From: Psammoneis japonica
Taxonomy: Eukaryota
Length of the DNA: 64,000 nucleotides
Assembly (NCBI GenBank): GCA_008632985.1
Contig: QPGO01000036.1
Span: forward strand, 124,001-188,000
Reading direction: 5' to 3'
The first letter of the stretch is position 1; every line of letters starts with the position of its first letter. Positions 1 to 50,682 of this stretch are shown piece after piece. The notes below the pieces were generated by a model. It did not search any database. It worked only from the letters and a program-made list of their open reading frames with translations, and was not told the DNA's origin. The position numbers were made by a program, and so were the translations under genes.

Positions 1-16
1 TGGCCTCCGCACTTCC

Positions 17-1956: not shown

Positions 1957-1993
1957 GCCCCTTCTCATCTTCCCTCATTCGGTTCAAGGGGGG

Positions 1994-6859: not shown

Positions 6860-7574
6860 ACGGCGTGGAGATTGAATATTAGAGAGTCTCTTCTTTCTGC
6901 TGTTGCTCTCAGTTGTTGTGCTGCATGTTGCATCTTCTATCTTCTATCTCGCTTGAGCGTCGCGAGCGTTGGCGATGAATAAGCGCGCCAAAAGTTTCTG
7001 TGGGGGCCTCGTACTGTACTACGGTGTCCTACAGCGTGATGCGCACAGTACCGGTAGGTGGGGGGGCACAGGACATGAGCTCTGCAAGACTTGCAGGGCA
7101 GTCAAGTCTCAATGTGGCTGTTCTGGGTGTCGCCACTTGCAAGGAGAATCGCAGGCGGGGGCGGACGAAAGTGCAAAATGTACATACTTCTAGAAACCAT
7201 TGCACAGACAGACCATCACCACTTCAACTCTCCTTGCAAGTGGTGACACCCAGGAGTTCTCCTGACACTCAGGGGCTTTGGCAACAACTCTTCTGGTGCA
7301 GTCATGACGACAGAAGGTTGGTTGCTCTCGACACCATTTTGGGCATTCTTGTTCATCTCAACAAGGTGCAAAACATGGGCCGCCAGCCTTGCACTCTCGG
7401 GATTGGCTGGTGTTGCACCATGGACAGAGAGAGTGCCTCTCTGCTGAGAGACGAGCCATGTGTTTTCTCGGTGATCATGCAGCCAGAGCAACAGAATCAG
7501 TGCAGCCAAACAGCATGAGAAGAGCAAGCATGGTGAGGGAGGCCATGCAACACAGATGTTCTTTGCAAGACAGA

Positions 7575-7780
7575 GGCCATCATTCTCAACATGCAAACAA
7601 GTCCAAGTTTTTCACAAAATTGAATGGCTGCATTGTCAAAGGCAAAGGCATGAAGACAGAGGGTGCCACACGAAGGATCCTTTTCAACCATGTCAATGCA
7701 TTTCTCAACCAGGATCATTGCCAAACCTGAGTGCCAAAATTCAGATCAGGGTCACAATGCATGGCAGCTTGTTGGTGCCA
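7575..7780 (-). pseudogene. Decayed NAA60-like GNAT N-acetyltransferase fragment inside a TpA-depleted island
   Basis: CIVTL...EFWHSGLAMILVEKC...CGTLCLHAFAFDNAAIQFCEKLG resembles YIMTL...G.A...LYLHV...N..AI.FYEKLG with Tyr to Cys changes. Stops and frameshifts on both sides. Confidence 0.7.
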
Positions 7781-8146
7781 TCTGTGGCTCCTTCCCGTGT
7801 CACCCAACATCACATCCCGAAAAAGTCGTGATGGCAAGACGTGCTGCTCTGACAGAGTCGGTGATGTCCGAATCAAGGTTGTGGCTTTGATCGACAAGCA
7901 CAGCCACCATGCGTTCATCATTGCATTGTGATCAAGTGGACAGTGGTGATGTGGTTTCTGCTTTATGTCGATGAATGGCAAGTGACGGCAGGACGATGCG
8001 TTCACAGCTTGTCGTTTTTGGCTGACAAACAGAGAAAATGAGAAACGGAAATGGTGTGCAAGAGTCGAGCCGCTCATCCAGAAATGCTAGGGCCCCTAAG
8101 TATGGCTTGATTGCCTATAATGTTTCCAACATCTTGTCTGAATGGA

Positions 8147-10090: not shown

Positions 10091-11821
10091 TTAGCGACGA
10101 ACAGAACAAAAGACGGGCACGTCGTCGCTGGGCCGTTGACCTGCCGAGGCATGCTTGACATGAAGCTCGTAACCAGGCTTCCAGTGAAACTTAATGTCAC
10201 GAAGCAGCGTAGCAAGGACAAGAACAGCCTCTTGCGTTGCAAACCTTTGTCCAGGACACGAGCGTCCTCCAGTGGAAAACGACAAGAATGCGTCTCTGTT
10301 GCCTTTCTGAACTTTGCTGCTGCTCTCGTCCTCCTGTTCCACCCATCGCTCCGGCAAAAACTGCGTCGGCAGGGGAAAGTTACGTTCATCACGATGAATT
10401 AAATAGAATGGAATATATGTGTATGTTCCAATGGGGAGAGTGTACTTGTTTTCGCCCGTACCCACATCAACGGGCTTGGTAAGGGTGCGAACCATTCCCG
10501 GCAAACTGGGGTACAACCTGTAATTGTGTAAAAGGAGGAAACGTAAATCCGATGAGTCTTTGCGCACCGCTTCAGAGGATCCGATTGCCCATTTCGACTA
10601 GAAAACAAGAGCGCCGTACATGGCGTCACAGCAAGTCAAGACAACAGACCTTAGTGCTTCTGTTACAATGGCGGCACAATACGTAAGCTTGCCAGGGTCG
10701 GGAACTGTTTCCTTGTCCGGCCAAACGCTCTGGATTTCTTCTAGTGCCTTGCGCTCCACCAATGGATTACGGGCTACTTCCAAAATGGCATATACCAAAG
10801 CCAACGCCGTCGTCTCGTGCCCCGCAAAGAGTAGAGTCATGAGCATGTCGGTCATGGTCTCTTCCACAATCTGAGCCGTCACATCTGATTCATTGCCCTG
10901 TAGAAGGTCTTCTTTTGCCTTTAGCAAATGATACAATAGGTCATGCTTATCGGAAGCCGCCCCACCATTACGAAGACGTTCCTGAACACACCCCTCAAGA
11001 AAATCTCGAATGTGCTTGCGGCATTTGCGATACTTCTTGTTTCTTTTCGTCGGCGTATTGTAGAAAAAGCCAGTAAGTGGGCTGCTTACTCGTCGATCGT
11101 ACTCTTCGCTCATGAATTGGAAAGCCTGAGCAGTCGGATGAAACTCGAGTCGCTTGCAGTTTTGAAAATCAAAATCGATCGCTGACCTTCCGAAGACATC
11201 TAAGGCTACCATTTTCATCAGAGGTAGAAGGTCCACCTCAAACTGCCCATCTTCAGTCGAAGAAGATTCGCACTTCTTAATCAGCGATGTCGCCAGATCA
11301 CGAGCAACTTGGACAGAATTGATCTTCCCGTTCAACATTGTTTGAGAGCCGAGAGATCGAACAATAGCCGATCGATGGAACTTCCATTCCTTATCTTCCA
11401 GAACTAAAATATTTCGTCTTCCAGCGAGCATGTCAAGGTGTTTACGAATAATGGTCGGCATATTCATGCGGTTGGGTGTTGAGTGAAGAATTGCTCGGGC
11501 GTCTTGATAACGAAGAACGGTGACAGTACTTGTTCCAAAATACCACATTGCTGTCACTCCATATGGGTTAGCATGATCGCGGCACAGGGCTGCAAGAGAA
11601 TCCTCAATGTCAATGTTTCGATCCTCCACATGGCCAATCAACCAGTGTGAATCCGCAGCAGGTGGACAGGGGAGCCCGGGGAGTGGGGATTCGCTGTGTT
11701 TTGCCTTTAGCTTCAAATACATGCAAACCAGCGCTGAGGACGACAATGCCACAGCCCAAAATAGGGAAGATTGCTGCTGCGCATACCCTTGCATGGCTAA
11801 AAGAACCGAAGGCAGCGCCAT
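10091..11821 (-). CDS. Cytochrome P450 (2 exons)
   Basis: I-helix FAGHETT, ExxR (EALR-LYP) joined by intron 10518-10649, PERW, heme motif FSTGGRSCPG, N-terminal TM anchor. Confidence 0.95.
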
Positions 11822-11916: not shown

Positions 11917-11996
11917 GCGTGGTGCATGAGTGCATGAGTATCTTCGCTGACTGACTCAATGTCGAGGCGATGACCGGATGACCGTTCGACAGGCAC

Positions 11997-12172
11997 TGCA
12001 AGCTCAAGCTGAGGTTGATGTCAAAACAAAGAAGTGAGTAGACCGAAGAGAGGGAGAGCCTAAGCGTCAGCGAGCGCTGGCGAGTGCTGGCGAGCCGCCT
12101 CTCAAACGGCTACGTTAATCCAATGTACAAAATTAATGCCACACATCAGAAGCGTGTGAGTGAGTTGCTGCG
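11997..12172 (-). repeat. Gypsy 3' LTR
   Basis: TGCAAGCTCAAGCTGAGG...GAGTTGCTGCG aligns with 17280-17453. Adjacent to the PPT. Confidence 0.92.
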
Positions 12173-12373
12173 CTCTTCCCTTCCATGATCCGAAAGAACT
12201 GGAGGATCATGCAAAGGGCCAAAACCAGGGACCAAAACCCAAAAAATCACAACAGCAGGAGGAAACCCAGGTGTTGGGAAGAAAACCCCCTGATCAACCA
12301 CGAAAAGGAATCAGGCGCCAAATGTTGAGGCGCTCAACCACATGAGGAGCTCGACGAAGCGAAGGCGTGCCAC

Positions 12374-15300
12374 TCACATGCACTTGAACAACAGGACAAG
12401 GGCCATGAGCACGAGGCTCAAGTCTGGACGGGTCAACCGACTTGATTGGAACTTGATCACCCACTTGACAATCGCAGGATCTTCTCTTGGCATTGGCTCT
12501 TCGGAATTGTCGTTGATCAGCGTCTGGCGATGGCCTTGGATCGTCAGCAAGTCTGCCAGCACAGGGACACCTAGGATCATGTCACGTCCAAACACCACAG
12601 CACCTGGTGAAGTCTGCAAAGAACGGGAAACAGCACAGCGAGTTGCACACATTGCAGTTGCCAAAGCATCGTCCACGAGGCCAGCTGCATCTTGAAGATT
12701 TTGAGGTGGGTTGGAAGCAATGAGCATGTGCAGTGTGTCACCGACGGTCTGGTGCATTCGTTCACAAATGGCATTGGCTTGAGGGTTGTACGAAGCAGTC
12801 GGCACATCATCAATTCCGGCTTGTTGCAACAGCATCTGAAAATCGTACCCGGTGAACTCGCCGCCGTCATTGTGGGTGCATCGATTCGGTCTGGGACAGC
12901 GTGCAAGCCAGCAGTTTTCAAATTGGTTGGCAACATGTCGGGCAGTTTTATTTTCAATTCTCACAAGTTCAACAACATTGGAGACAGGATCATGCAGGTC
13001 AATGCCCGAAACTCAATCTCTCCATTCGGCACCTTGATTTTCCACGGGCCAATGAGGTCAACCGCCACTTCCGACCAGGGAGTTAATGGAGCTTCTCGCT
13101 CGGGTGACTCTCCACAGCCAGGACCCAAAGTTTTGTTACGTTGGCAATCAGCACAAGAGTGTTCATCACACATGCAATGCAACCCAGGATGACAACAATG
13201 AGCCTGGATCGTTTCACGCATGCGCTGGCTTCCGGCATGGCCAAGGACGAGATGACACCACCGCAAGATGTCGGGCATGAGCGCAGTCGGCAAACAGATT
13301 TTCCACTGTCCTGGAGGATCATTCGGTCGCATGCAATGACACACAAGCGGTCGATCATTCACACATTCCACGAGGAAACGATCAGGGTGAGCAACGCGCA
13401 TCTGGTTCAACTGTTGGTCCTCGAACTGGTGCTCCTGAGTGCATTGTAACGTCATCGGATTCTGCATCTCTTGCATCGCAGGGCAATTCAAGAAAGAACC
13501 GAACAGTTCTGGCTCATCCACAAAGAAAGAGAAGAAGTGTGAGTGGCCTTCATTTTCAATGTTGCAACAACACTTAAATTGGCATGCGCCGAGCTCCAAG
13601 TCCTCATCGCGGAAATCCTCGACTTGGATGGTTCCTCACTCGGCACCAACTTCGAATCGAGCGGAGCAAAATCAACAACAGTTCCTTCACCCGGAGCCAA
13701 GCTCTTCCCTTCAGAGGGAGGATCCACACGAGGTAAACGAGAAAAACAATCAGCCAAGACATTCAATCGGCCTTCAATGCAATGAAACTGAGGAGAAAAG
13801 TCTTCCAGAAAGAGTCGCCAACGAAGTGCGCGCTGTGAATTCAAGGTGCGAAAGGCAAGGTTCTTGTGGTCAGTGAATGCATGCAAGTCGCCGCCAAGGA
13901 GCATCGATCGGTGTTCTCGGAAGCACATGACAATGGCCAACAGTTCTTTTTTGATCGTTGAATGGTTTTGTTGCGCCGCACTGAGCTTTCGAGACCAGCA
14001 TGCAACAGGCTTTCCATCCTGTACAATCACTGCGCCCATCTGGCAATCACTTGCATCGGTGCAGATGTGGAAGGGTTTGTTGTGATTCGGATGTGCCATT
14101 GATGTTTCGGCTGCTGGGACTGCTTTCATCTCATCGAACGCCGCCTGACATTCCGTTGTCCATGTCCATGAGCCTTTGCCTGTAAGATCTGTCAAGGGTT
14201 TCAACAGGTGAGAACGCCGAGGCCACACATTGCGACAATGCGTTGCAGCGCCAAGGAACGAACGAAGCTGCTTGATGTTTTCCGGAGGTTGCATTCGCAG
14301 GACAGCCTCCACCTTTTTCTTCCACGGACGAGTTCCAGTCGGAGTTAGCCAATGCCCAAGGAAATCCGTTTCCTGCACACACCATTCGCATTTCAAGGGA
14401 TTTACTTTGAACCCAGCTTCTTCCAAGCGTTGCAAGAGTTTGTCAAGACGGTCAAGGTGAATGTCAAAGTCGTCATCAAATTGAGCGAGATCATCAATGT
14501 GTGCGTCAACGTCCAAGTCGTGCACAGTTTTCTCAATCAAATGTTGCGCAACATCTGGAGCCGGCTTCAGACCCATTGCCAAACGGCAGCATCGGCACTT
14601 TCCAAAGGGTGTCACGATTGTCGTCAAGTCCTTGGAATCGTCATCCAATTCGAACACACAGTGCATCATTGAGAGGTCCAATTTGGTCAAAAACTTGCAC
14701 CCAGCTCTCTTCTGCAGCACATCTTGAATGATCGGTAAAGGATGAACCTTGCGCTTGAGGGCTTTGTTGAGTTCCCGAAAATCGCTGAGCCACCGCACTC
14801 GACCATCCTTCTTCGGCCGAATAAAAGCACCAGCAGCCCACTCCGTTGTTCCGGCTTCTTCAAGAACGCCAAGAGCCACCAAATGATCCAGTTCTTGTTT
14901 GAAAGTCTCGAGATCATTGTGCGGTGCTGCACGCGCTCGAGAATGGCAAGGAACAGTGTTGAGATCAACATCAAGGTGAACTTTTTCGCCAGCATGCTTG
15001 CCGAGAGTGCCGTCAAAAAGAGCAGTGTGTTTTTCCAATGCGAGGCGCAATTTTTCTTGTTGTTCGGTGGTGAGATGCTTCTGAGCCGATGCCACTTCAG
15101 AAGGGGACGTCTCCTCATACTTTGCATCGAGGATGCAGCTGTCCCACACATCATCATCGTTGGCCAGCTCATCAGTCAAGTCGTCAAGCCACTGCTGGGT
15201 GCCAATCCGATGGTTTCTTGGTTTCATTGCAATGCTTGAATTGAGCCACTTGACAATTCCGTGTTTGAAATCTAACGTGACACCTGCTCTCGCCAAGAAG

Positions 15301-15782
15301 TCCTGTCCAAGGATCACATTGCACTGGCAAGGTGAGTCAAACACATGCGCATGCATGCCATCAACACATTTGGTCTTGTCAAATTCAGGGAGCACCACAT
15401 CCTGCAGTCGAACGTAACGAGTGGATTTGAATTCTCCTGCCAACATCCGAAACTTTGCAACAATTGGTCCTGTGTCCTCCAATGCTGGCACCGCTCCAAC
15501 TGGCAACACCCGAGCATGAATCATTGAATGGGTTCCACCAGAGTCAAGTGACACCCGCAGCACGTGCTTGCTTTCCTTGTCTTGAATGAATTGCGCCGCG
15601 AATGAGGTTGCAGGGACCACATTTAAAGGTTTGGTTGGTTTTGTTTTTGGGGTTGGCACAGCGCACTCAAGTCCCACATCGTCTTCGTCATTCACAATGC
15701 AATTTTCGAAATCGTCATCATCAAACAAATCAGCAGCATGTGCACGACAATCATCAACGCAGTCAGTGCAGTCATCAAACAT
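12374..15782 (-). pseudogene. Gypsy pol (protease, RT, RNase H, integrase), frameshifted
   Basis: LDSGG protease. RT motifs PKKDGRVRW, DFRELN, HIDD. RNase H TDASD, KELLAIV, TDHKNL. Integrase HHCC and DLIGPW/DGGEF/ERMH. Split over ORFs 13488-15782, 12961-13599 and 12374-12964. Confidence 0.93.
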
Positions 15783-15839
15783 GTGGGAATCAGGAGCGAC
15801 ACACTCGGACGACAGCTCTTCAAGCTCATTGGGTCAGCG

Positions 15840-17068
15840 TCAACCGCATCCCGAGAAGCGACCACCAGGTCGAAAACTTCCCGCTCCACCTCGATGCTCA
15901 CGAGGCTCTCCCACAGAATCAAGATGATGGCTTTCAGCAGACCAATCATTGGGAGGAGCCATTCTGGCCGGATTGCCGCAACCGCCGCCATCTGCATTGG
16001 TTCGGGTGTCGTTTTGACATTGCATGCAGGAGCCACCATCTTCATGATGCTCGCCGCCATTGCCGCCAGAGTTGCAGTTTCCTTGACCGCCACAATTTTC
16101 TCGGCCACCACCATGACCTTGATGGCCATGGCCTTGCCAACCACGACCTTGATTTCCGCCATGGCCACAACCTCCACCGCGACCGCCACCTCGACCACCA
16201 CGGCCACCATGTCCACGACCGCCACGATCAGTTCTTGGACGGCAGTTGTTGGAGTCGGGGTTCATGACGCAATCTTTCCACTTGTGATTGTGAGTGTGCA
16301 ACGGACATTGGGATTCTGGGTCAACACGATTGCCTTTCTTCTTATTCGAGCGCCTTCATTCTGTCCATCTTTGTGCTTTTTCGACGTCTTCTTGTTCCCA
16401 TCCGCAAACGATTTCTCCGTGCTCATGTGCGTGACCATTTCTGCCAGTGCATCATTTCCAATCGTGCATCCTGCTCTTGTGTGCATCTCACGCCACGACA
16501 GAGGGAAGCTGTCGAAAATCATCTTCTTCTTTTGGTTCTGAGCAACAACTGGATTATTTCCCGGCAACTTGTTTGTGCATCGCACCAAAGTTTCCATTCG
16601 ATCTGCGTGTGCCTGCACTTCAACGTCATGCGGCTTTTTAAGTGCAAGCAAGTGTTCAATCATCGTGTCACGAGCTTCAGTTTCACAATGCGACAAATAA
16701 AAATGAGCCAACTCTTGGTCAAAATGAGCTGCCGTCTTCTGCGCATCCGGAATCGCCATGGTGAGATTGGACCATTTGTCTTCAGCTGCATCCGTCAACA
16801 CTTCTTCAAAATTGTCAAACAATTCTTCTCCTGTGGTGAACTCGAGTTTTGCAGCCAGTTTACGAAAACGATCTTCCACAAACAACAACGCTTCAATTCC
16901 ATCACTTCCGTCAAAACAAGGGCACTTTTTCGTACGCGTGCTTCCATCATCATGCGATTGAGTCAATTTTACGAGTTCCAAATCCGAGTGAGCAAATTTC
17001 GCAGCATGCAAAATGCATGGTTCCTCAAGGCTCTCGCGATTGCTCATCAGGCCAAGTTGGTCCACCAA
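15840..17068 (-). pseudogene. Gypsy gag-like ORF with Gly/Arg-rich C-terminal region
   Basis: CFDGSDGIEALL...FEEVL.D.A...W gag-like ORF 16262-17068, frameshifted into HKWKDC and RGG repeats. Lies between the 5' LTR and pol. Confidence 0.75.
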
Positions 17069-17279
17069 GAAACTGTTTTAAGTGCTCTACCTTCGATTCG
17101 AGTTGTGCCACTCAAATCGCCAAATCCTGTTTGCGTTGTTTTCGTGTCTCCTTTTCTTGTTTTTGTTCCAAAGCCTAGTTCGCTGCCTTTGCTCTCAAAG
17201 TTCTTTTCTCTTGTTTTGCAAGCCTGTCAATTGTGTCGTCATTTCTCATTCAGCTCTTTACAATCGACTGCAACTGCAG

Positions 17280-17453
17280 TGCAAGCTCAAGCTGAGGTTG
17301 ATGTCAAAACAAAAAAGTGAGTGGACCGAAGAGAGGGAGAGCCCAAGCGTCAGCGAGCGCTGGTGAGTGCTGGCGAGCCCTCTCAAATGGCTGTGTTCAT
17401 CTGACATCCAAAATTAACACCACACATCAGAAGCGTGCGAGTGAGTTGCTGCA
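17280..17453 (-). repeat. Gypsy 5' LTR
   Basis: Direct repeat of 11997-12172 with TG...CA ends. The plus-strand left edge could extend to 17275. Confidence 0.92.
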
Positions 17454-17601
17454 GGTGCAACACAGTGGCTGAAACCCAAACAATTGACATCATTTTGTCG
17501 GTCATTTTCAAAAATGTTGTGTGCCTCCAAACATGCTCATTGGAACTGTCAACCACATCACACCATCAGTGAATGAACACTGGTCTGAAGCTTCTTGCAT
17601 G

Positions 17602-17843
17602 AAAAAAGTCATTTGTGGAACCGGGCGCACTGTGTTCATCAACAAGGGCAATGAAAGACAGTGGTGACAACATCAGAGCGCGCATTCTGGTGATCAAGGG
17701 TGTCTTTCTCATGGCAAATTTTAAAAAAGTTGTTTGTGGAACCGGGCGCACTGTGCTCATCAACAAGGGCAATGAAAGACAGTGGTGGCAACATCAGAGC
17801 ACACATTCTGGTGATCAAGGGCATCTTTCTCATGGCAATTTTT
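17602..17843. repeat. Tandem duplication, 2 x 121 bp
   Basis: AAAAAAGT..TTTGTGGAACCGGGCGCACTGTG...TCTTTCTCATGGCAA starts at 17602 and 17723. Confidence 0.9.
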
Positions 17844-20090
17844 TTTGTGCTGTGGCAGGACACCAGATGTGCACATGGTGATTTTTTGTTGTCCACGGCA
17901 GTTGTCATTTTTTTTGCTGTGGCAACCCTGCCATCGCCGCGGGAATTTCTTCATCCATGAGATCCTCCCTTGTTCTGGCGCCTCTTTTCACAAACTCCAG
18001 ATTGCTGCAAAAAGTCAAAAATTGCAGTCATTTGCAAATTGGCATGTTTTGCTTTGATGCCCAGCATCGTTGAAAATGATGAAAGCTGCGCATTGCAAAT
18101 TAATTTCATCGGTGGTTGCTGTTTTGCTGCTTGCATTGCTTTGGCCAGGCATGGCCAAGAATGGCTCTCCTGCACCACATCTTTTTCTCCGCCTTCATCA
18201 TCCCCGCCGCTGGCAATGCTGTCTTCATCATCGTCCTCCATTTCTCCTCCTTTGCTCCTGTTCGCCACATCGTCCTCATCATCACTCGACAGCTCAATCA
18301 TTGCTTGCATCCTCTTCACCATCTTTGGCAGCTTTTTCTCCTTGGCTCCACTCTTGTTGCTCTTGTTGCAGTTTTTTTCCTTCTTGTCTTCCATGTGACC
18401 TGTGTCGAGCTGCATGCCTTTTTCACTCACCCTGTCATCTTGCACTTCTCCACGCAGCTCGTTGCATTCTGGGACTGCTGGGATGTTCTTGGAGTTGTCG
18501 GCAGGGCAGCATCCATGTTTGGGGCCTTTGGGCAGTTGCTGCACTGTGCAAAAAAAGAAGAACAACCAGCGCAATTCCCCACAGGACAAAAATCCGACGT
18601 GGGATTCTGTGCCAGGGCTGTGTGAAAATGACTCAATGTCTCTCAAACATTTCCAACTTGACTGACAGGCAGCCTGAGCCACGAAAAAAAGAAGAAAAAG
18701 CCAACTCCAAACTGCCAGTTGTTGTTGCATTGTGTGTGCATTTTGCAGCAAGGCAACGTGTGAAATCTAGAAGTGCCACATGTCAATTGCTGCCTGTGCA
18801 GCAAGAAGTGTGCTTTGTCACCCTCGCCGCACTGTTGAGAAAAAAATGTTCGAACCAAATTGTCTGGAGGCACTTGATTGTGTCAAGACAGGTGAAAAAT
18901 CATGGACAAACCACATTGCATGTGATGTTGTTTCAACCAGAGATTCTTTTGACATTTCAGCTGGACTTTTGAGGAATGTGATTGGGTTGGGTGTCTGTCA
19001 TCATTGTCATCATCGTCCCCCACTCATTTTCAGCATCTCTTTTGAACTTTTTGTGGATTTTGATCCACCAAATGGCTGTCTGTTCAATGATGTGAGTCAG
19101 CCGGGGTGGGGCCAGTTGGCTGCGCACATTTGGGTTTGATGTGACTGTGCAACTGGCCACACCCTGCAGGAAAAGCTGTTGGTGGTGCGCGAGCAGAAGC
19201 AACATCAAAGCAAAAAACACAGTGTGGGTCAAAATGTTGTAAAGTGATGCGAGAATGAGCAATGAGGAGAAACCCAACTTTGCCCAGGAAAGAAGCACAT
19301 CAATGTGTTGCCCAATCACTTTGATCTTGTCTGAAAATGCTTGCTCACAGATCATGAACGGCATTTGCGTCATTGCTTGCCATGGCATTGTTGTGTGGTG
19401 TCATGCGCTGTTGTTGTGCGCGAAGGACGGGGTTCTGTTTTACCCACAGTGAATCTGTTTTGGTCACAGCAGATGTTTCACCATGCCCAACTTGAAGACA
19501 TTTTGAGAAGCGCTTCGCAACAACTCTGTTCACACCGTTGAACATTAAAATTTTTTTGTGCAGATTCCGCAGCTGTTTTGGGGTGTTCTGTTGGACTTTT
19601 GAGTTGCCACATGCGCATTGCAAGATTCAGAAACTTCAATGACATGTGATGTCCCAAGAGACACACACAAATTTATCTTCCCTGCAGACCTTGTAGAATG
19701 TGTGCCAACGAAAATCCACTGCCTGTCAACTCACTCAGCAGCATTCCACGTGCATTCTACTTGCACCTCACACACGCACACACACCTGCACAGTCTGATG
19801 ATGCCAGAGACAGAGTCAACCGCATCAGGCGCAGCAGGCAGCAGCGGGGAGTTGCCTCAAAGTTGTTGAAACTGTGACTCAAATTGAAATGATGCACTCT
19901 TCAATTGCTTCACAAAACTTTGCAATGTCTGCATTGCGACACTGTTGGTGAATTGGACTGCACAAAATTTGGCCTGTTGCCCATCAAACATGTGAGCAAT
20001 GAACAATTGCACTCTGCAAACAAGTGGGCTCATTTGCACAGCTTTGTGGCTTTCGACAACAAGAAAGTCATCGCAGTGTGTTTGTCACCA

Positions 20091-20225
20091 AACAACTTTC
20101 AACAACTTTTTGTTGAAAGTGGACAACTTTCAACACTTTAGAAAGACGCAACTTTCAACAACTTTTTGTTGAAAGATGCAACTTTCAACAACTTTTTGTT
20201 GAAAGACGCAACTTCCAACAACTTC
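20091..20225. repeat. ~30 bp tandem array of hairpin-forming units
   Basis: Unit CAACTTTCAACAACTTTTTGTTGAAAGA(T/C)G contains inverted arms CTTTCAACA/TGTTGAAAG. Confidence 0.85.
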
Positions 20226-20971
20226 AACAGAAAACTCACCGGCACAAAAATCTGATTGGAAAAGCGACATCATCTGAGACAAGTGCACATGCATGACCGA
20301 CATTCATCATTGATGCAGCATTGGTGCCATTCGATTCTCAGTGGCGGTGCTGTCACCAACATTGTCACTTCTAAGTCCTTTGTTGATTTTAATGAGATGT
20401 GATGTGTTGAGCCATGTCCACACCTTGGTGTGACTGATGAAGTTGCTCATGACTTGGCGCTTTCATCTGAGGATGAAACCACCTGAGATGCAGCATGCTG
20501 GGACCCAGACTCAGAATGGCAGATGGGATTGCTGGGCTCAGAGGATGGAGCAGCCGATGGTTTGGTGCTGGGATGATTCTCACTTGGAGCTGCAGACAGC
20601 GCCTGACGATGCACTGGGTGAGATTGGAGGCAGATCACTGCCAGGTGGGAGCTTTGCTTGGTGTGAAGCACATTAGATGGTGGCTCACTTGGAGCCATTG
20701 AAGGTGCTCCACTGCTGGCAGATTTCAAGAAATTGACAATTCTGAAACTGCTGCAGCCAAAAATTCTGAAACTGCGCCACAAATTGTCAAACTGCTTCCA
20801 CCAAAAACCACCAAACCAGTGCTGAACTGCTGAGCCAACTTCACGCTGCTCTTTTGGGCTTTGGCAAGGTGTGCATTGCTTGTGCTGTTCTCATCACGAT
20901 CTTTGACTTTTGTGTCACCCCACTGCAGTGCAACCCTAAATGAGAACAATGTTTTTGCACGTGTCGATGTG

Positions 20972-21108
20972 GTTTTTGTTACAAAAGTGTAACTTTGAAC
21001 AGATTTTTGTTAAAAGATGTAACTTTGAACAGATTTTTGTTGAAAGATCTAACTTTCAACATCTTTTTTGTTGAAAGATCTAACTTTCAACAACTTTTTG
21101 TTGAAAGT
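20972..21108. repeat. Second ~30 bp hairpin tandem array of the same family
   Basis: Units TAACTTT(G/C)AACA..TTTTTGTT(A/G)AAAGAT repeated about 4 times. Confidence 0.85.
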
Positions 21109-21416
21109 CAGTTGTCCGTTGAGTTGTGACCATAAACTCAACATGCAACATGTGTTGCTGAATGTTTTCATGCAAGGAAAGAGCAATTTCAATGTCTTCA
21201 ATGGACATGCGTTGCAGCGTGCAAAAATGTCCATTTCACCAGAGTGAGTTGTCAGCGGGAATCAGATGCACCATGCCTGCATGCATGAGCGTGACGGGAC
21301 AACTTCAACTTTTAACAGATTTGAGGCGACTCCCAGCAGCAGCAACAGACAACAACAACGATGGCAGTGGAAACATCAGCAGGGACGTTCACGACAAGGA
21401 TGCCGGCAGAGATGCC

Positions 21417-23434
21417 ATGAACCAATTGATGGCAAATGTCTCATTGGCACCAACGACACCACCAGGACAACAAAAGAAGTCGACGACCGGCACTGGGACC
21501 AAGAAGAAGCCACGGAGGAGTCGATCCAGTTCCCGCCCGAGTGCTCTGGCAGCGACAAAAAAGAAAGGTCAGAGATCCACATCAATGCCGCCATCGTCAA
21601 AGCTGAAGCAATTGAAAAACAACTCAGAAACAATGGTGAGCAGCCACTGTTCACGGACGGAACATCATTGACATTGCATTGAACGATTCACTTCCCTCAC
21701 TTGTCTTTCCTCTTTTTTTTCTTTGATGTCTGCGTCCGAACCACAGGCTTCAGACCTTGCTGTTGAGGAGTTGCTTGGCCTGTCATCATCTGAGGCCGAC
21801 GCCCTTGGACGGCAAGAGATCATTGGCCAGCTGGTGATGCACCGTGACAGCATCCTCAACACCTCCATGCTCTGGTCTGGTGACAAGGTGTGCAAGCAGA
21901 TCACTCTAAAGATTCGCTGTCTGAAAATGTGCGTTCTGCAGAAGGCTGGGACTGTTCAGCATGGCGCCGGAGAGGCCCCCGCAAACATTTGCTGTGGGAA
22001 GTGGTCCAAGGACAAGGACAAGATCCGGAATCTTGTGTTCCAGCCTGAACCATTTTTGGGGTGCAATTTTGCAATGCACGGGGGTGAGATTGTGCAGGTG
22101 CTGGCAGAAATTCCGACGGAAGAAGACGCCAGAGCCACCCTTGGTGATGAACGTTTCAAGTTTCACAAAGGCGGAACTGTCAAGTGTCGGCACTGCTGTC
22201 CGCGGGACCTCAAGAACAATGCCGAGCTGAAGAACAAGATCACTCACATCATCGGAAAAGGATTTTGTCACCGGGACGATGAAGACCCAGAGTTCTCATT
22301 CAACGATGCGTGCATCACCCACAACTTGTTGTGCAAGCACAAGAGTGCGTCCCATGCGATCACAGTTGAGCTTGTCACTGATGAAATGGGGCCACACGGG
22401 ATCATGTGATGAAGATGTGTCACTTGGTTGGGGTTGTTCTTTTGATGGACGACATTCAGGCACACAAGAAGGAGATCCAACAAGGTCATCCCGACAAGAT
22501 TCAACAGGTCTGCCAGAAGAATTTCAGGGTCTTCAACTTAGTCCAGATCACCATTCTGAAGGAATGCTCGCACCAACGGTTGGGTTCTGTTGTGATGGAA
22601 GCTGTTGAACATGCCTTGAAGGCATTGGCAAATCCAGCCGACCACAAAGTGCCACCTGCCAGTTTCTTATTCTGGGTTGGTTGTGCCAAGAGTTTCTACA
22701 AACGTCTTGGTTGTTCTGCCAATCCAGGCTCTGATGGGGTCCCCGATGCTTGGCGAAATGTGTTTGAGTGTCCTGTGAAGCTTTCCAAATGGAAGGATGG
22801 CCAAGTTCAGGACATGACGGATCAAGAAAACCAAGAGATTTTCTTCTGCAAGTCATTCACCTGCACCAATCGGAACAAGTTTGGTGACCTTCAAAATTGG
22901 TGTCAAGATGATCCTGCCCGTCAACATCTCACTGTCACACACAGGGTTGGAGTGTTGAAGGAATGCTGCAACTTTGGTCTCAGCCGTGGCAAGCGTGCTG
23001 AGACAAAATCCATCAAAAATCTGGGGCACATTGAGGAATTCCCAACTGTTCATGATCATCGCACGGTTTGCGGTGTCACTGAAATCGATGTTGACATCAA
23101 ACAGCACACAGCTGCAAATGTCAACAGTCATGTCGAATGCAAGTGTGAGTTTGTCAAGAATTTTGTCTTCATCTGTGGCCAACGGACTGACGATGGTGGG
23201 AGGGACTTTGGGTTCAACCTCAACATCAAGGTGGCTGCTGAAGTCAAGGCGGAACACATCATCCACCATGGCCACACGCAGAATGGATTGACAGTGTCTG
23301 TCTGCGGCGACATCGTCAAGGGTGGCAACACCGCCATGCTGATCCAACTTAAATTGCCTTGGTTCAACTCGAAGGAAAGAATGAAAGTTGATCGGGATTG
23401 GCCTGCTGTTGGTCGTAAGATGGTGGAGAAATGA
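21417..23434 (+). pseudogene. TpA-mutated intron-containing gene with a GNAT acetyltransferase-like domain
   Basis: In-frame GT-AG intron 21636-21746 with a pyrimidine tract joins ORFs 21162-21671 and 21723-22409. Frameshift near 22406. Then LVGVVLL...LVQITILKECSHQRLGSVVM...AKSFYKRLGC (GNAT motif A and FYxxLG). Start uncertain. Confidence 0.6.
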
Positions 23435-26307
23435 GTCGTTGATTGCATCTTCAATTTGGTTGATCAGGCTGTGTTGGTTGCTTGGCAAAGAACAGAATTG
23501 TCGATTGCTTCTTCAATTGAGTGCAACAAATCACAATGAATCGGCCATGGTGACAGTGATGGAATGATGGGTGTCAGTCTGATGGGTCGATTGCAGCCTG
23601 CAATTTGAACTGGGAACTGGCACAAATGCAGGATGCAAAAGAAATGCATGTGTGGAATTCATTTGCATGGAGCCAGAGGGCAGCTGACACACATCGGATG
23701 GACGGTCGGTTGGTTGATCGCTGTGTGTTTGTGGGTGGGTGTTTGAAATGGTTGTTGAAAGTGACATGAACAGCAAGGAATGTTGCTTGCATCCATGGGG
23801 CACAGATTTTCATCTAAAGCTGATTGTTGATTGGAAACTTGCCCCATGACGAATGCACATTAGACTGATGTGTGTTCTCTGTTGTGTTGCTGCTCTCCGA
23901 AGCAGCATTGAACAACAACCACGCATTGACAAGACAACTCCCAAGTCTCAATTTGCATTCGTCAATTGTTGTTAGATTCGAATTTTGTTGGAGAAAGTTG
24001 AGATGCAAATGCATTGCACTGAGATGGTCCGCCAATGCCCAAATCAAAAAGAGGTGGAAGATTCCACTGCTGGCACCACCGCACCATCACTGCTCCAGCC
24101 AACAGTGCAACACACATTTTCAAAAACAAAATGTCTGACAAACAATCCCATTCTTCTTTTGCGTCATACATTGTTGATGCTGTCCCAACCATGTCGCAGC
24201 ATGTGGCATTGGTGACTTTCCACCCGACCGCAAACACACACACATGCACGTGCAAAACACAGAGAGATCAGAAAGAAAAGACAACAAGACATTGTGCACT
24301 TCATTTTTGACAATGTAGATGCTGACAAAAAACTTCTGATGGCGGCAACGTTGCCAGATGGTGGTGAAGGACACTCGTGTGCAGGATTTGTTGTCATTGA
24401 GATGATGACTTGAGACAAGACATCGGTGGACTGATCTTGCTGATCAGTGAAAAAGATGTCAATGGAATCACACTCGATTGGATCAAGGCAAACCATGTTG
24501 ATTGAAGGTTGTGGCAATGGGACGAGCAGCTGCTTGCATCACATTGTCACCCGACCTTCAAATTGACCAACAGCGAACACTGGACAAACATGGATGTGGC
24601 GCAATCCAACCAAGCCATCCTTGAACAACAGTGCATTGACATGATGACACCCCAAGTCTTGATGCGTGTGTCAATCTTCATTGACGTCAAATGAAGCAGA
24701 ACCAGAGATGGCCATGCACCAGCAAGATGGTCACAGGCAGCTGTGAACAAGGTGAAAGATTTCAACACAACCAGCTGCAGCCAGCATGCAGCCAAAAAAA
24801 AACCTTGTCCGGCAACAACAACAGCACCGTCACAAACATTTCCCTCTCGTCAAATGACATCCCGTCGGTGTGTTGATTCCGCACTGACAACTGGGATTGC
24901 TGTCACGTTAAAGGTTGTCTGCACATCAGACAACCCCCTGACACCAGAGTCCGGCAATTTTTTTATGTTTGTGGCTGGCCAAAGGAAAAGGGAAAAAAGG
25001 AGGGGATTCAACCTTTCGATGCATGCAAAAATTGACCATGCAGCAGGGCCAGAGATTCATTGGCTTCTTCTTTGTGGTCTGGGGTGGTTGCTGCAGGGGC
25101 AAAAGCTGGGTGCACATTGCAACTTCAGGGTGACTGTCAGCTCAAAGGCTGCATCAGGGGAGGGCCAGGGAGAAGAAAAACATGCAAGCTTGGCTGCTTG
25201 CTTTTCAAACCCTGGTGTGTTGGTCATGAGCAAGCTTTCGAGAGAAGAGTGAGAGAGGTTCTGGCTGCATTGCCATGCAGAGAGTCTTGTTGCTGGCACA
25301 TCTCAGGTTGTGTGTTCAGCATGCTCAATGGCTCTTGGGCCCAACAACCTCACTCAGAGCTTTTTTGTGCCAGCAACAAGCTCAAAGTTGTCTTGCTGTG
25401 CTGACAAATGACAAATGAGCTTGAGGAGGCTTGTCTGCAATTTTGCAGCTGTGACATGGGGGCACCAATGACATGAGCTCCTGCCAGCTCCAGCCTTGGC
25501 TCAGGGCTTTTACAACACTGGTGTCTCTTGCTCAACTGCAGAAAAGAGCTGTGGCATGTGAGGTCAGGCAGCCCAGGAGCCAGGCTGTCTGCACTCCTTT
25601 TGCAGATGGAACAAAGGGCCATCATGACTGCACAATGAGGGCAATTTGTGTGGTTGTGCTGGTGTTCTGAAGGTCTGGGTGTGCCCCTGGGAAGCTGCAC
25701 ATGAAGAACTCAGCATTGCCACCAGCACCATGAGTGCATTGCCGCCCTGCTCTGGGAGCCTGCAAACTCAAGTTTGGTGTCTCAGCTGGCATCGTTTTTG
25801 TGCACGATTTGGGTCGCATGTGGCTGGAACAGGTCATTCGTGTGCCAACAAGCCTCAAGCTGTGGGTCATGAAAAAGCCACCAACCTCCCAACCAGCTGC
25901 AGAGCCAGCCAAACCATGCCACTTGAGGGTCCAAGGTTCAAAACAAGAGGGTTGCATCAACTCTCTTCTTGTTTTGTGTGCTCAAGAGCCTTTTGTTCTC
26001 TCTGCAAGTCTTGTTTGGTGTGTGCTCACTTCTGTTGAGTTTGGATTGAAGAAAGGAGGCTGCAAGTTCCAGATGGGTTGATTTGCCTTTGCTGCAAAAG
26101 GTGTGCATTGTCCATTTTGATTGGACGCCCATGCAGAGATCTGAAAACCAGCATTGTTGCAAGCATTGAATGCAGAGAGAGAAAACCAATTGACATTTTG
26201 AAATGAACATGCAAATGCTTGGCAGCTGGCGCAGAAATGAAAAGATGATTTCGAATTTGACATCCTGTTTTGTCCATTCGATTTTGCTCATGCCCAAAAC
26301 TCTGCAT

Positions 26308-26428
26308 CGTTGACCATTTGGCTGTCTTTGTACCAAAGCAGAAATTTTAATTGGGGGATGTTGTCAACCATTTGGCTGTCTTTGTGCCGAAGCAGAAATT
26401 TTAATCAGGGAATGTCGTCAGCCATTTT
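26308..26428. repeat. 54 bp tandem repeat (about 2.2 copies)
   Basis: (TG/CA)ACCATTTGGCTGTCTTTGT..C.AAGCAGAAATTTTAAT at 26311 and 26365, partial copy at 26419. Confidence 0.85.
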
Positions 26429-27683
26429 TGGCTTGCTTTGGCTTGAAGTCATTTTTGTTGATGTGGGTTGTGGGCTTGTTGTTAACTGGCCATGATCCTG
26501 CTGAAATCTTTGCCAGAGTCCCTCCCTTTTTCTGCACACACTTGCTTGAACCGGCAACCCGGAAATGGGTTGAGGTCAGTGCGGTGGTTGCTTTACGAGG
26601 TCGCCCCACCTGCACTCGACACACCCGACAAACACTCAGACAAACAAACCAGCAAACCCAAAAAACAAACCTGCACAAGGCAGCTGCAAAGCAACTCACA
26701 CTGGGGCCCCTGTTGAGCACAGCACTCAACTTGGACAACTGATGGGGCACTGCTCCTCAGCCAGCCACGATGTTTTGGGCTGAGTTGCCACCCACATTTT
26801 TCCTTCCTGCGTGACTTGGTTGCCGGTCAGAGCCCACTGTCTCTCTCTCCCTACAGTTTTGCACTTCTCCACCTGCCAAAAGTCTGTGAGAGGGGCCCTG
26901 GCAGTGCCAGCTGGCAATCATTGAGCTGTGTTGCACTGCATCTCATTGACAACAGTCGCGCTGCATTTTTTTGCATGTGGTGTTGCATCGTCAGCTGCTT
27001 GCTGGGTTTTGCAGTGTTGGCTGAAACAATGTGACTTTTTTAGCATGCGCAGCTGGCAGAGCTGGCACACACAATGTCATTCTTTCAATGGGTGTCAACC
27101 AAGTGACTTGAGCCCAGTTTTCTCTTTTTTCAAAGCACAACTTTTGCCGCCAGCCAGGGAGGCATGGGGGGGAAATGAAGCAGCAGTGTGGTCACCAAAA
27201 AGTGCCGCCGTGCATGTGCAGGATTTCTAAAATGTCTTTTGGATTTTTGAAAGTGCACAAAGGGCATTTAGAAATGCCACCACGAAAACTTGTTCAACTG
27301 CCCTGTGTTGCTGGTGCCCCCTTGAGCACACAAACCCAGCTGCAAACAGCAGAGCAGCACACACACCCCGGTGCAAGCAACCATTGCAAGCACAAGCAGC
27401 ACATGAGCAAATTGTTCACACAAACATGTTTTCGTTGAGGCTCAAGCAAAAACCACAGGGATGCACAGTCAAGCCCAAACAAGACGCAGGACTCTGTCGA
27501 AGCCCTCCGAGTGTCTCCCGTCCTTGCGTCGTCCGATGCCTCTTCCTCGATCTGCTCCGATCTCCGCCGATCGATAATCTTGAAGATTCATTCTTGATGC
27601 GTTGGCGTTGACGTTGACGCGGGTATGGACATTGATAGATGCATGCATCGGCATCGCAAAAGAAATAATAAACGAATCACTGT

Positions 27684-30650
27684 ATGATGTTGCCACGAAA
27701 CTTGCTGGCCTCGATTGTAGCTGCTGTATTCTTGCCTAATCTGAAAACGAAAACAAGATCGTTAGCATTCGTTCCGCATCCAACTTACGGACGAAAGACT
27801 GCTCTTCACGCAAATCCGCCGCTTTCACGGCTGTTTTCATCATCTGAAAATGACATTATCGAGGAAGAATATGGCAATGACGAAGAGTTCACATATGCCT
27901 CGTCGGAAGAATTCATGTCGGAATCAGATGTTGCGACAGCAGCCAATGAATTGGCGAAGAACAACAATCAAGTTGAACTACAAAGGAGATCTCCAACAGT
28001 TTTCTGCAATACGCTCTCAGTATCATTCTGGGTCGCGCCCTCCCAGATGCAAGGGACGGTTTAAAGCCGGTGCACCGTCGCATACTGTATGCAATGTCTC
28101 AGTTATCGCTAGCCCCGAATTCGCCTCATCGAAAATGTGCGCGTGTGGTTGGAGAAGTACTTGGGAAATTTCATCCTCATGGGGATATGGCAGTCTATGA
28201 TGCATTGGTACGTATGGCGCAAGATTTCAATAGCGGCACTCCCCTTATTGACGGACATGGCAACTTTGGAAGTGTTGATGCGGATCCGGCTGCCGCAATG
28301 CGATACACCGAATGCAGACTAACAAAAGTATCGCACCAAGCCCTCTTGGAAGATCTGCAGCTCGATACTGTAGACTTTGTCCCTAACTTTGATGGCAATG
28401 AAGTCGAACCTACAGTGTTGCCGGCAAAGTTACCCATACTGCTACTTAATGGATGTTCCGGAATTGCAGTAGGCATGGCCACCAATGTGCCACCACACAA
28501 TTTGAATGAATTGATGGACGCTTGTGTCGCGCTCACAAACGGCTTCAAACAAGACGGAAGGCACGTCTCAGACGAAGAATTGTTTTCCTTAGTACCCGGT
28601 CCGGATTTTCCGACAGGAGCCAGCATTATGGGAACGGAAGGATCCAAGCTACTTTATTTAACCGGAAACGGCGGCGTCATAATGAGAGCAACTACGCATA
28701 TCGAAAAGATTGTAACGAAGAAGAAGCAATCGAGGTCTGCCATAGTTGTGACACAGCTTCCCTATCAAGTGAATAAGGCTGCGTTGTTGGAGAAGATTGC
28801 TAATTTAGTCAATGACAAAAAGCTAGATGGCGTGGCAGATTTGAGGGATGAATCTGATCGGGAGGGTATTCGAGTAGTGATTGAATTGAAGCGCGACGCT
28901 GTAGCTGCTGTAGTACTGGTAAGAATTCTGTCTCGAACCGTTTTGTTCTACGTAAGATGTTGATTTTTCCCTTACTCATCCCGACGTTGGTTTAATGTTG
29001 TTGATACCTACATCAGAACAATCTGTACAAAAAGACGTCGTTACAAAGTTCCTTCTCTGGAAACTTCTTGGCTCTCATGGGATCAGGAACGGTCCCACAG
29101 AGGTTTACGCTACGATCAGCCTTGGAATGCTTTTTGGACTTTCGTTTTCAAACCATCCGTCGCAAGTCTAGATTTCAATTGGGCAAGGTATCATCTCGGG
29201 TACACATCGTCTCGGGCCTCCTCAAGGCTCTGGCCTCCGTCGATCATGTAATCGATGTAATTCGAACCGCACCCGATCAAGCCGCAGCCAGGGAAGCTCT
29301 CATGGAAGATGATGAGAACGATGAAGCGTCACTGAGTCTTTCTCATGAGCAGGCCGACGCGGTGTTGCGCTTACAGTTGGGACAATTGACCAGACTCAAT
29401 AAGGACAAGCTACAAGATGAAAAGAGTACACTGGAACAATCCCAAAAGGAGCTACAGAATCTGCTTGACGACGATGATGCAGTCCGCAGTGTGATGGTCG
29501 GGGAATTTGAAGAGCTGAAACACAAGTTCGGGATTCCAAGACGGACTGCAATTGAGGTAGAAGAAGGGGAATTGTCCGAAATCGATTTGATTCGTAATTC
29601 TCGATCAGGTATGTTTGTAGTGACTTGATATAAGGGCTTGCTTCTTCCGCATGTATTTTCGCTCACAATCTGTATGCGTAATCAGTGATTGTTGTAACTC
29701 GTGGGGGCTACATTAAACGCATGCCGCTGAAAACATTTGAAAGCCAAGGTCGAGGGACGCGTGGAAAGAAGGGAACGTCAGACGCATCAGCAGATAATGA
29801 AGTTGCCCAATGCTTTACGTGCAACGATCACGATACGCTACTCATGACGACGCAGAGGGGTATTGCCTTTGGTCTTCGAGCATTTCAGGTCCCCAAGGGA
29901 GGTCGCACGGCCAAGGGCGTAGTACTGCCGTCGGTTCTCCCAATCAAATCCAATGATGTGGTTACGTCCATCTTACCCGTCTCGGAGTTTACGAATGATA
30001 ACGAGTTCATTGTCCTAGCTACAGAACGGGGATGGATTAAAAAGACCCCGCTTGCTGCATTCGAGAACTTAACCAGTCGTGGCCTCACCATTGCTTCCCT
30101 CGCCGACGGAGATTCTCTCAAATGGTGTCACCGCTGCACAGATAGTGACGATTTGTTGATCGGATCAACCCAAGGGAGAGCTACAAGGTTTGAGGCGGCG
30201 TGTTTGCGCCCCACAGGCCGAACGAGTCGTGGAGTGCGGGCGATGAAGTTAAAGGAGGGAGACACAATTGCTGGCATGAATGTGTTGAGTTCTTCACCTT
30301 CATCTGGGAAGGATTCGTCGGAATTTGTCCTTGCAGTGACGAATCGTGGGTTTGGGAAGCGCGTATCGACCGACGAGTTTCGCGTCCAAGCTCGTGGAGG
30401 CGTGGGTGTGATTGCGATGAAGTTCAAAAAGGATGAGAATGACAGTGTTAGCTGTCTTCTCACGGCCCGTGAAGACGATGAGATCCTTGGCATTTCAAAC
30501 AGAGGAATCATTGTTAGGCAGCGTGTTTCTGACATTCCTGTGCAATCGCGAACCGCCACCGGTGTTCGGGTACAGAAGCTTGACGTGGACAACGGAGACT
30601 GCATAAGCAGTGTCAGTATAGTACCAAAGTATGAAGAAAGGGATGACTGA
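27684..30650 (+). CDS. gyrA: DNA gyrase subunit A, nucleus-encoded and organelle-targeted (3 exons, one apparent 1-bp frameshift)
   Basis: [24 protein letters not shown], catalytic AAMRYTE, GyrA box QGRGTRG and beta-pinwheel repeats. Introns 28919-29016 and 29609-29685. Presequence with SLA-FVP. One base is missing near 27981-27984. Confidence 0.96.
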
Positions 30651-50680: not shown

Positions 50681-50682
50681 GA

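Follow-up and report, generated by a model that had tools for sequence, protein, structure and literature searches.

A TpA-specific hypermutation footprint in inserted mobile DNA of the diatom Psammoneis japonica

Why should long blocks of a diatom nuclear genome, lying between ordinary genes, have almost no TpA dinucleotides? The question is raised by a stretch of 64,000 nucleotides from Psammoneis japonica (assembly GCA_008632985.1, contig QPGO01000036.1, positions 124,001 to 188,000 of the forward strand; this whole stretch is 'the window', and all coordinates are in its own numbering), in which a Ty3/gypsy retrotransposon and the older relics beside it (11992-27500) form one of five such blocks. 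An earlier note, made from the letters alone, had remarked that these blocks are stripped of TpA and flooded with TpG and CpA while the adjacent host genes are normal, and had proposed a mutator that acts on DNA and is directed at repeats or heterochromatin. We ask how large and how confined the loss is, in which direction the change ran, whether DNA or RNA was its substrate, and what distinguishes its targets.

Observed/expected ratios for dinucleotides were calculated from base composition, both in sliding 1-kb windows and as block totals. In the sliding windows, TpA is at 0.00-0.18 across 1-2000, 7000-8100, 12000-27500, 40500-43000 and 45600-55300, with TpG and CpA at 1.3-2.5; in the flanking windows TpA is at 0.4-0.8. 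The block totals agree: 15 TpA are observed and 103 expected in 1-1990 (0.15), 4 and 63 in 7070-8080 (0.06), 82 and 1025 in 11993-27500 (0.08), 13 and 159 in 40425-43300 (0.08), and 24 and 680 in 45620-55370 (0.04), that is, 138 of an expected 2030 (0.07) for the five blocks together (31 kb) vs 1298 of an expected 2231 (0.58) for the rest of the window. The fairest neutral comparison is host intergenic-like DNA (432/565, or 0.76); the Pfam-supported open reading frames (ORFs) of the host are at 0.54. TpG and CpA reach 1.45-1.86 in the block totals, and AA/TT, at 1.04-1.39 in the blocks, is not depleted. The sliding-window calculation, which the earlier note had suggested as a check, thus bears out its description of stripped, TG/CA-rich blocks beside normal genes.

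The boundaries of the blocks are sharp, within ~100-400 bases. For example, dense TpA ends at 40424 and the next TpA is at 40817; likewise, TpA is only scattered from 46051 to 55359 and is dense again from 55383. Between two of the stripped blocks lies a TpA-normal island of 2.3 kb (43301-45619, minus strand) that contains a DUF1995 gene (44242-44976). The window as a whole is a gene-dense nuclear region with nine Pfam-supported host genes, and the five stripped blocks between them contain none. With these edges, the gene island and the Pfam-supported neighbors, the footprint is restricted to inserted mobile DNA and leaves the flanking host genes normal, as had been proposed.

The direction of the change can be read from the gypsy element, which is encoded on the minus strand. 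From left to right it comprises one copy of a target-site duplication (GGCAC, 11992-11996); an outer, 3' long terminal repeat (LTR; 11997-12175) on the side of the neighboring cytochrome P450 gene, in which six TpA are kept (12039-12134); an internal part with a dead pol (12176-17279), recognized by Pfam (RVT_1, RT_RNaseH and Integrase_H2C2) and by blastx, with the reverse transcriptase-RNase H ORF at 13491-15782 and integrase remnants at 12300-13635; an inner, 5' LTR (17280-17454) that has stripped DNA on both sides and keeps one TpA; and the second copy of the duplication (GGTGC, 17455-17459). The LTR pair, the 5-base duplication and the order reverse transcriptase-RNase H-integrase in pol identify a Ty3/gypsy LTR retrotransposon, the single gypsy element matched when the entire window was compared by blastx with 120 gypsy relatives. 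Named relatives of the polyprotein come from the diatoms Pseudictyota and Cyclotella; a scan of viral contigs returned no relative of the pol.

We aligned the 764-residue pol ORF with the best 60 of the 120 relatives listed (52-65% identity). In 18 columns at least 70% of the 60 intact relatives have tyrosine (Tyr); in these the window has cysteine (Cys) nine times, histidine (His) seven times, arginine once and Tyr once. As a control, 10 relatives used as queries retain Tyr at 17-23 of 18-23 columns. The ORF contains 0.3% Tyr (median of the relatives, 3.56%), valine has become alanine in 7 of 19 conserved valine columns, and conserved catalytic residues are destroyed, e.g., the YxDD motif of the reverse transcriptase is HIDD. 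Across 364 conserved columns there are 75 differences, 59 of them explicable by one base change; these comprise A>G after T (14.3), T>C before A (14.0), CpG transitions (7), A>G elsewhere (2.0) and T>C elsewhere (2.0), the remainder being scattered transversions. Polarized in this way, A>G and T>C amount to 28.3 at TpA vs 4.0 elsewhere, and both products, TpG and CpA, occur (14.3 vs 14.0), that is, either strand is hit. Because the relatives conserve Tyr and the polarized changes are specific for TpA, the ancestor was TpA-normal and the change ran from TA to TG or CA, at TpA specifically.

Two further comparisons point the same way. A second gypsy polyprotein, a protein of the Joint Genome Institute (JGI) that belongs to a different data set (P0167, 751 aa, 50% identical to the window pol), has Cys at nine, His at four, Tyr at three and phenylalanine at two of the 18 Tyr columns, and the outcome is in the same direction as in the window at 9 of 12 comparable Tyr codons. 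Outside the gypsy element, in a relic ORF on the plus strand (22385-23431), three of the four aligned Tyr positions of its TpA-normal and only close relative (P0241; 283 aa, 6.4% Tyr, no Pfam family above the cut-off) are occupied by Cys, Cys and His; the same pair also differs by arginine to Cys, threonine to methionine and arginine to His, which are of the CpG type. Among 78 related gypsy loci in metagenomes, TpA is at 0.45-1.08, in a search whose patterns held Tyr so that stripped copies would be missed. The earlier note had taken TpG and CpA to be one event on opposite strands and had named, among the findings that would count against it, active or consensus elements already lacking TpA and no excess of TA to TG/CA over other transitions; both orientations are seen, the intact relatives have TpA, and the excess is large.

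Was the substrate DNA or RNA? When an element integrates, its two LTRs have the same sequence. Those of the gypsy element are now 88% identical over 181 aligned bases, with 21 substitutions, 13 of which lie in dinucleotides derived from TA or CG: TA/TG (two), TA/CA (one), CA/TG doublets (three, that is, six substitutions) and CG/TG (four). The outer LTR has six TpA and the inner LTR has one. The two copies of the target-site duplication, GGCAC and GGTGC, differ solely by a CA/TG doublet, one ancestral dinucleotide that was resolved in both possible ways. The mutation acts after insertion, on integrated DNA and not only on RNA before reverse transcription, as the TpA-derived differences between the LTRs and the CA/TG doublet in the target-site duplication show; this supports the DNA-level mutator that had been suggested. 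The 99 CA/TG doublet differences between the two copies at 45.6-55.4 kb agree with it.

Not all of the TG/CA excess comes from TpA. Compared with host dinucleotide ratios, the blocks lack ~1043 TpA and ~1037 CpG and have ~965 TpG and ~1072 CpA in excess; this balance between the missing TpA + CpG and the ~2037 extra TpG + CpA holds block by block. About half of the excess is therefore from TpA and the other half from ordinary CpG decay, so the 'flood' of TG/CA described earlier is attributable to TpA for one half only. Methyl-CpG decay resembles the TpA process in that it ends in TpG/CpA and is present in the same blocks (CpG is lost, TpG/CpA gained), but it cannot remove TpA, and it is the slower of the two in the window. 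In the gypsy and copia blocks, whose domains are still recognizable, TpA is at 0.04-0.18 and CpG is still at 0.72-1.01; in the blocks without a recognizable domain both have been lost, with CpG at 0.11-0.57 in the older blocks. The TpA loss would thus have preceded and outpaced methyl-CpG decay. Two of the metagenome relatives (L052 and L075) have CpG at 0.11 and 0.27 with TpA at 0.76 and 0.81, that is, CpG decay can happen without TpA loss in other hosts.

We compared the window with contigs from a sequencing run under the same organism code (run X1; 54% of sampled words; library type not on record). Word depth in these contigs is 58-59 on the host flanks and 60-79 on two stripped segments, 17758-19719 and 21216-25010, over which the contigs reproduce the TpA-poor sequence with 0-3 differences each. 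Because TG and CA are mixed in this sequence and it is repeated at full depth, a base-calling artefact, the danger pointed out in the earlier note, is unlikely; misreading of a modified base on one strand would be expected to give half-depth versions, one all TG and one all CA, and not a mixture at full depth. The depths also bear on the targets. The LTR pair, the copies at 45.6-55.4 kb and the multi-copy gypsy family are repeated, and over the gypsy region the summed X1 depth is ~2000 (~900-2900) vs 58, which corresponds to tens of copies at a likeness of at least 90% to this stripped copy. However, the relics at 17758-19719 and 21216-25010, at single-copy depth by the same limit of at least 90% likeness (older copies may have diverged past it), are equally stripped. 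The part of the earlier proposal that restricted the process to repeats is not upheld.

Comparison of the window with X1 revealed a few differences. Stripped single-copy DNA has eight in ~5.8 kb and host DNA has one in ~5.4 kb. Of the eight, seven are of the CpG/TpG/CpA type, in five X1 has CpG and the window does not, and none restores TpA; real polymorphism at methylated CpG, or occasional methyl-CpG miscalls in the assembly, could explain them. The host-side difference, at 11940 (57 bases outside the LTR), is TA in the window and TG in X1.

A close counterpart exists outside the diatoms. In mutation-accumulation lines of the chlorarachniophyte Bigelowiella natans, two integrated viral regions gathered 231 mutations, of which 230 are A>G or T>C, each of these at a TpA (Mettrop et al., bioRxiv 10.64898/2026.01.13.699255). 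According to this preprint, silent integrated viral DNA mutates at ~6e-7 per site per generation, the local rate being raised about 1000-fold in real time, and reverse transcriptase and DDE domains are over-represented in clusters and coding sequences that are depleted of TpA and rich in CpA + TpG; its authors propose an ADAT2-like deaminase and do not mention diatoms. The window has three sequence-level features in common with B. natans, that is, A>G/T>C at TpA only, both products, and restriction to insertions. The differences are that B. natans belongs to the Rhizaria and was measured live, whereas the window is from a diatom (a stramenopile) and presents a footprint only; that the B. natans targets are inserts of giant viruses and virophages, and those in the window are LTR retrotransposons and unidentified relics; and that the main target in B. 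natans is mildly depleted (Rho 0.45) and the window is near saturation (0.04-0.15).

Full-text literature searches, whose coverage leaves out most subscription journals, yielded no description of TpA hypermutation in diatoms, and term searches of Krasovec 2019 (PMC6604790), Maumus 2009 (PMC2806351) and Traller 2016 (PMC5124317) yielded no passage on TpA or hypermutation. The phenomenon is less new than had been supposed, since the signature itself had already been measured in B. natans; the footprint in the window is of a kind first described in 2026 and not categorically new.

We propose the following explanation. Mobile elements integrate, and a process acting on DNA would then convert A:T to G:C almost only at TpA, with TpG or CpA as product according to the strand that is hit. 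The process would be confined to inserted, presumably silenced DNA and would run near to saturation (88-94% of the expected TpA gone); slower decay of methyl-CpG would overlay the same blocks and supply the other half of the TG/CA excess. Stop codons would not be made, so the relics would retain long, open but dead frames in which Tyr is replaced by Cys or His. For the chemistry, we infer that adenine in DNA is deaminated (to hypoxanthine) by an enzyme of the cytidine deaminase fold similar to ADAT2/TadA; the target would be picked by silent chromatin or 'foreignness' and not by homology between repeats, and the process would serve as genome defence. Three observations suggest position-based targeting: the outer and inner LTRs contrast, blocks at single-copy depth are stripped, and the target in B. 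natans is single-copy as well.

To this explanation as a whole, that is, a TpA mutator acting after integration, adenine deamination, targeting through silent chromatin and a role in defence, we assign a probability of roughly 0.7. Its observed part is held with high confidence: the polarity, the TpA specificity, the occurrence of both orientations, the action after integration, the confinement, and the reproduction of the sequence by a second data set. For adenine deamination in DNA as the chemistry, taken by itself, the case is tentative and falls somewhat short of even odds.

Several points weigh against the proposed explanation. TpA is self-complementary, so A>G is inseparable from T>C on the other strand and a route through a modified thymine fits too; the involvement of a deaminase is purely conjectural; and the contrast between the outer and inner LTRs is a single case. 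X1 is possibly the sample behind the assembly, in which case it tests the reading of the bases and not the biology. Few of the 40 variant places listed for the gypsy region (of 223, with 194 transitions and 27 transversions) restore TpA, so that most gypsy copies in the genome have probably lost their TpA as well. Two histories would account for this, namely, separate hits on every copy, with an outcome that is in part deterministic, or later multiplication of one copy that had already been stripped. A point for the deterministic outcome is that P0167 matches the window at 9 of 12 comparable Tyr codons; under either history, the protein alignments show a TpA-normal ancestor of the family. Finally, the gypsy sense strand has 577 TG vs 425 CA, whereas in the 78 intact relatives the median TG/CA is 0.87 (range 0.40-1.39); when analyzed by codon phase vs 61 relatives, the TpA deficit is offset mainly by TG. 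On the plus strand the TG/CA counts differ significantly within single elements, with 425/577 in 11993-17452, 262/340 in 40425-43300 and 1205/1037 in 45620-55370; the last two blocks have an asymmetry of 15-30%. A strand bias, or a partial contribution from editing at the RNA level, may be involved; against this, the polarized non-synonymous changes are symmetric (Tyr to Cys 9 vs Tyr to His 7).

Among the alternatives, the one that survives best is that the same TpA hypermutation is truly repeat-induced, that is, that homology is sensed as in fungal repeat-induced point mutation (RIP) or methylation induced premeiotically (MIP), perhaps around sex and perhaps with DNMT4. The gypsy family is multi-copy and the block at 45.6-55.4 kb consists of two copies of one unit, as such a mechanism would have it; also, diatom DNMT4 enzymes, which exist in other species, group with fungal RID and are without a known function (PMC9998398), and we regard them as a lead only. 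However, the blocks at single-copy depth (at least 90% likeness) are as stripped as the repeated ones, and the two LTRs of the gypsy element, which are equal in homology and in end position, fared differently, the inner one having lost five of six TpA and the gene-side outer one having kept six. RID-type enzymes, as is generally known, act on cytosine and not on A:T pairs. In B. natans, the main target is single-copy (bioRxiv 10.64898/2026.01.13.699255). A requirement for repeats is, on balance, unlikely.

The comparison with RIP itself is instructive. As in RIP, the transitions in the window are dense, specific for a dinucleotide, at the level of DNA and located in mobile DNA with sharp limits, and coding capacity is killed. 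In contrast, RIP converts CpA to TpA, by which TpA and AT content are raised and stop codons are made; in the window there is no such C>T change at CpA, TpA is lost, CpA/TpG are gained, and no stop codons are made. RIP also needs duplication and acts premeiotically; in the window some stripped blocks are repeated and others are at single-copy depth. The footprint is the mirror image of fungal RIP.

The next alternative keeps the dinucleotide and changes the base, that is, a modified thymine (of the 5-hydroxymethyluracil or base J type) at TpA in silent DNA would be mis-repaired or mis-paired and give T>C. With a palindromic TpA, every result described here fits this chemistry equally well, and 5-hydroxymethyluracil is enriched at TpA in dinoflagellates. 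No sign of such a base in diatoms turned up in this analysis, however, and the X1 contigs read ordinary C/G at full depth, so the modified base would be an intermediate at most. We regard thymine chemistry as quite unlikely.

Editing of element RNA from A to I at UA by ADAR/ADAT enzymes, fixed by reverse transcription and re-integration, has two points in its favor: such editors prefer a U before the edited A, according to the B. natans preprint (bioRxiv 10.64898/2026.01.13.699255), and TG (577) exceeds CA (425) on the gypsy sense strand. It would predict A>G on the sense strand only and identical LTRs, and we find neither: T>C on the sense strand is at 14.0 vs 14.3 for A>G, Tyr to His at 7 vs 9 for Tyr to Cys, and the LTRs, although made from one template, differ at TpA-derived sites, with six TpA kept in the outer one. 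The target-site duplication is host DNA and yet has a CA/TG doublet, and blocks without a retroelement domain are also stripped. The hypermutation of retroelements by ADAR (A>G) or APOBEC (G>A) is similar in its clustered transitions and its preference for a neighboring base, but it takes place before integration, on RNA or first-strand cDNA, is strand-specific and leaves the LTRs alike; in the window both orientations occur, the LTRs differ, and sequence that is not from retroelements is affected. RNA editing as the sole cause is contradicted by these data, and we hold this alternative to be very unlikely.

An artefact of sequencing or assembly, in which a modified base in silent DNA is misread and TA is written as TG/CA, is scarcely credible. 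The eight window-X1 differences in stripped DNA vs one in host DNA, seven of the eight of CpG type, would allow a few methyl-CpG miscalls, but X1 repeats the TpA-poor sequence at host-like depth (59-67 vs 58-59), none of the eight restores TpA, and P0167, from another data set, has the same pattern of Tyr to Cys/His. Just as implausible is an untargeted cause (native composition, counterselection of UA in RNA, GC-biased gene conversion among repeats, or WA>WG synthesis by Pol-eta), which would agree with the mild TpA poverty of host DNA (0.58), but not with intact relatives at TpA 0.45-1.08 and Tyr ~3.6%, the destruction of conserved catalytic residues, the rarity of A>G and T>C outside TpA, or AA/TT at 1.04-1.39 in the blocks.

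Pol-eta had been among the candidate mutators of the earlier note. We rejected error-prone synthesis with the WA>WG signature as a poor fit: A>G after A is at 2.0 vs 14.3 after T, and AA/TT is not depleted.

The 116 TpA that survive in the block interiors have a context of their own. TTAA accounts for 24% of them vs 4.0% of 1299 host TpA (six-fold), CTAA/TTAG are enriched 2.7-fold, ATAT is absent (0 of 116 vs 6.8% in the host), and the depletion of ATAG and ATAC is 5- to 12-fold. TpA with a 5' T or a 3' A is the most refractory; some of the surviving TpA may have been newly made by other mutations. For the choice between TG and CA, no rule based on the flanking bases is visible at the 18 Tyr codons.

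The loss of TpA has a consequence for reading frames. From host to blocks, TAA decreases from 8.6 to 2.1 per kb and TAG from 8.3 to 0.9, and TGA goes from 19 to 25. Because TpA loss cannot create stop codons, every one of the six reading frames of the blocks has long open stretches, many of which overlap; long open frames in stripped blocks are not evidence of function.

The other stripped blocks differ in content. The first (1-1990, plus strand) is a copia-type fragment that is cut at the window start, partly hypermutated and at CpG 0.87 (RVT_2, ORF 370-1953). The 1-kb block between the Siva-like and tryptophan/tyrosine permease genes (7070-8080; CpG 0.44) and the block between the peroxidase and DUF1995 genes (40425-43300; CpG 0.51) have no recognizable domain. 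To the right of the gypsy element, 17460-27500 is an older stripped mosaic (TpA 0.02-0.15, CpG 0.1-0.65). The remaining block consists of two copies (45620-50560 and 50801-55370) of a diverged direct-repeat unit of ~4.6-5.2 kb, is the most degraded (TpA ~0.04, CpG ~0.1), and differs between its copies by 481 transitions and 218 transversions; over 3328 well-aligned columns there are 99 CA/TG doublet differences vs at most 10 of any other double difference, with sources in TpA and CpG that are indistinguishable since both are gone there. When 130 stop-free ORFs of at least 90 aa from the non-gypsy blocks were searched with Pfam, RVT_2 (370-1953) was the only significant match, PT-repeat and DUF7439 being below the cut-off.

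The relic coding region in the mosaic (21672-23431, plus strand), which includes the ORF compared with P0241 above, matches P0241 and four weak relatives, with sub-threshold hints only of GNAT and terpene synthase. It resembles no recognizable transposon protein, which means that classical retroelements do not make up all of the stripped DNA. The same mosaic contains a 121-base tandem duplication (17602-17843, 93% identity) and, at two places 0.8 kb apart (20108-20254 and 20979-21126), arrays in which the 30-base unit is internally dyad-symmetric (TTGAAAG...CTTTCAA type).

The nine host genes encode a fatty-acid hydroxylase, a Siva-like protein, a tryptophan/tyrosine permease, a cytochrome P450, gyrase A, a subtilase, a peroxidase, a DUF1995 protein and a Ysc84 protein. 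The TpA-normal P450 gene (10094-11875, minus strand; Pfam) starts ~120 bases from the outer LTR, and the gene for a plastid-type DNA gyrase A, also TpA-normal (27977-30647, plus strand), starts ~480 bases past the right edge of the block; the sole named eukaryotic relative of the gyrase A fragment is from the diatom Attheya (73% identity). A second run (X2), labelled 'DNA?', behaves like RNA and covers host genes: in the P450 gene its contig skips 132 bases (10516-10647, minus strand) with GT..AG ends, which confirms an intron. X2 does not cover the stripped blocks, but this carries no weight as evidence. At 4233-4608 (plus strand), a TpA-normal host ORF region contains tandem 93-base (31-codon) repeats that are 70-83% identical.

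If the proposed explanation is extended, diatoms and chlorarachniophytes might share an old, chromatin-guided defence by a DNA adenine deaminase, present at least across SAR (stramenopiles, alveolates and Rhizaria). It would remove TpA from mobile and viral DNA that is silenced, would functionally mirror fungal RIP and would reach saturation in diatoms, and its choice between TG and CA would depend in part on the local context or the transcribed strand. We put this forward as a possibility, and a rather doubtful one. That the choice is partly set is suggested by the shared outcome at 9 of 12 Tyr codons and by the excess of TG over CA on the sense strand; if true, it would point to single-stranded DNA exposed by transcription.

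The practical consequences concern annotation and dating: in diatom repeat annotation, Tyr-free 'proteins' rich in Cys and His are dead relics, and the dating of insertions by LTR divergence is affected. Mutational defence by conversion of A:T to G:C at TpA was known before from one chlorarachniophyte preprint of 2026. If our explanation is true, the process would occur in two lineages of SAR, including, with the diatoms, a major group of primary producers in the sea, and would represent a natural activity for editing A to G in DNA with a strict preference for TpA; comparison of diatoms with and without the footprint could then lead to the enzyme.

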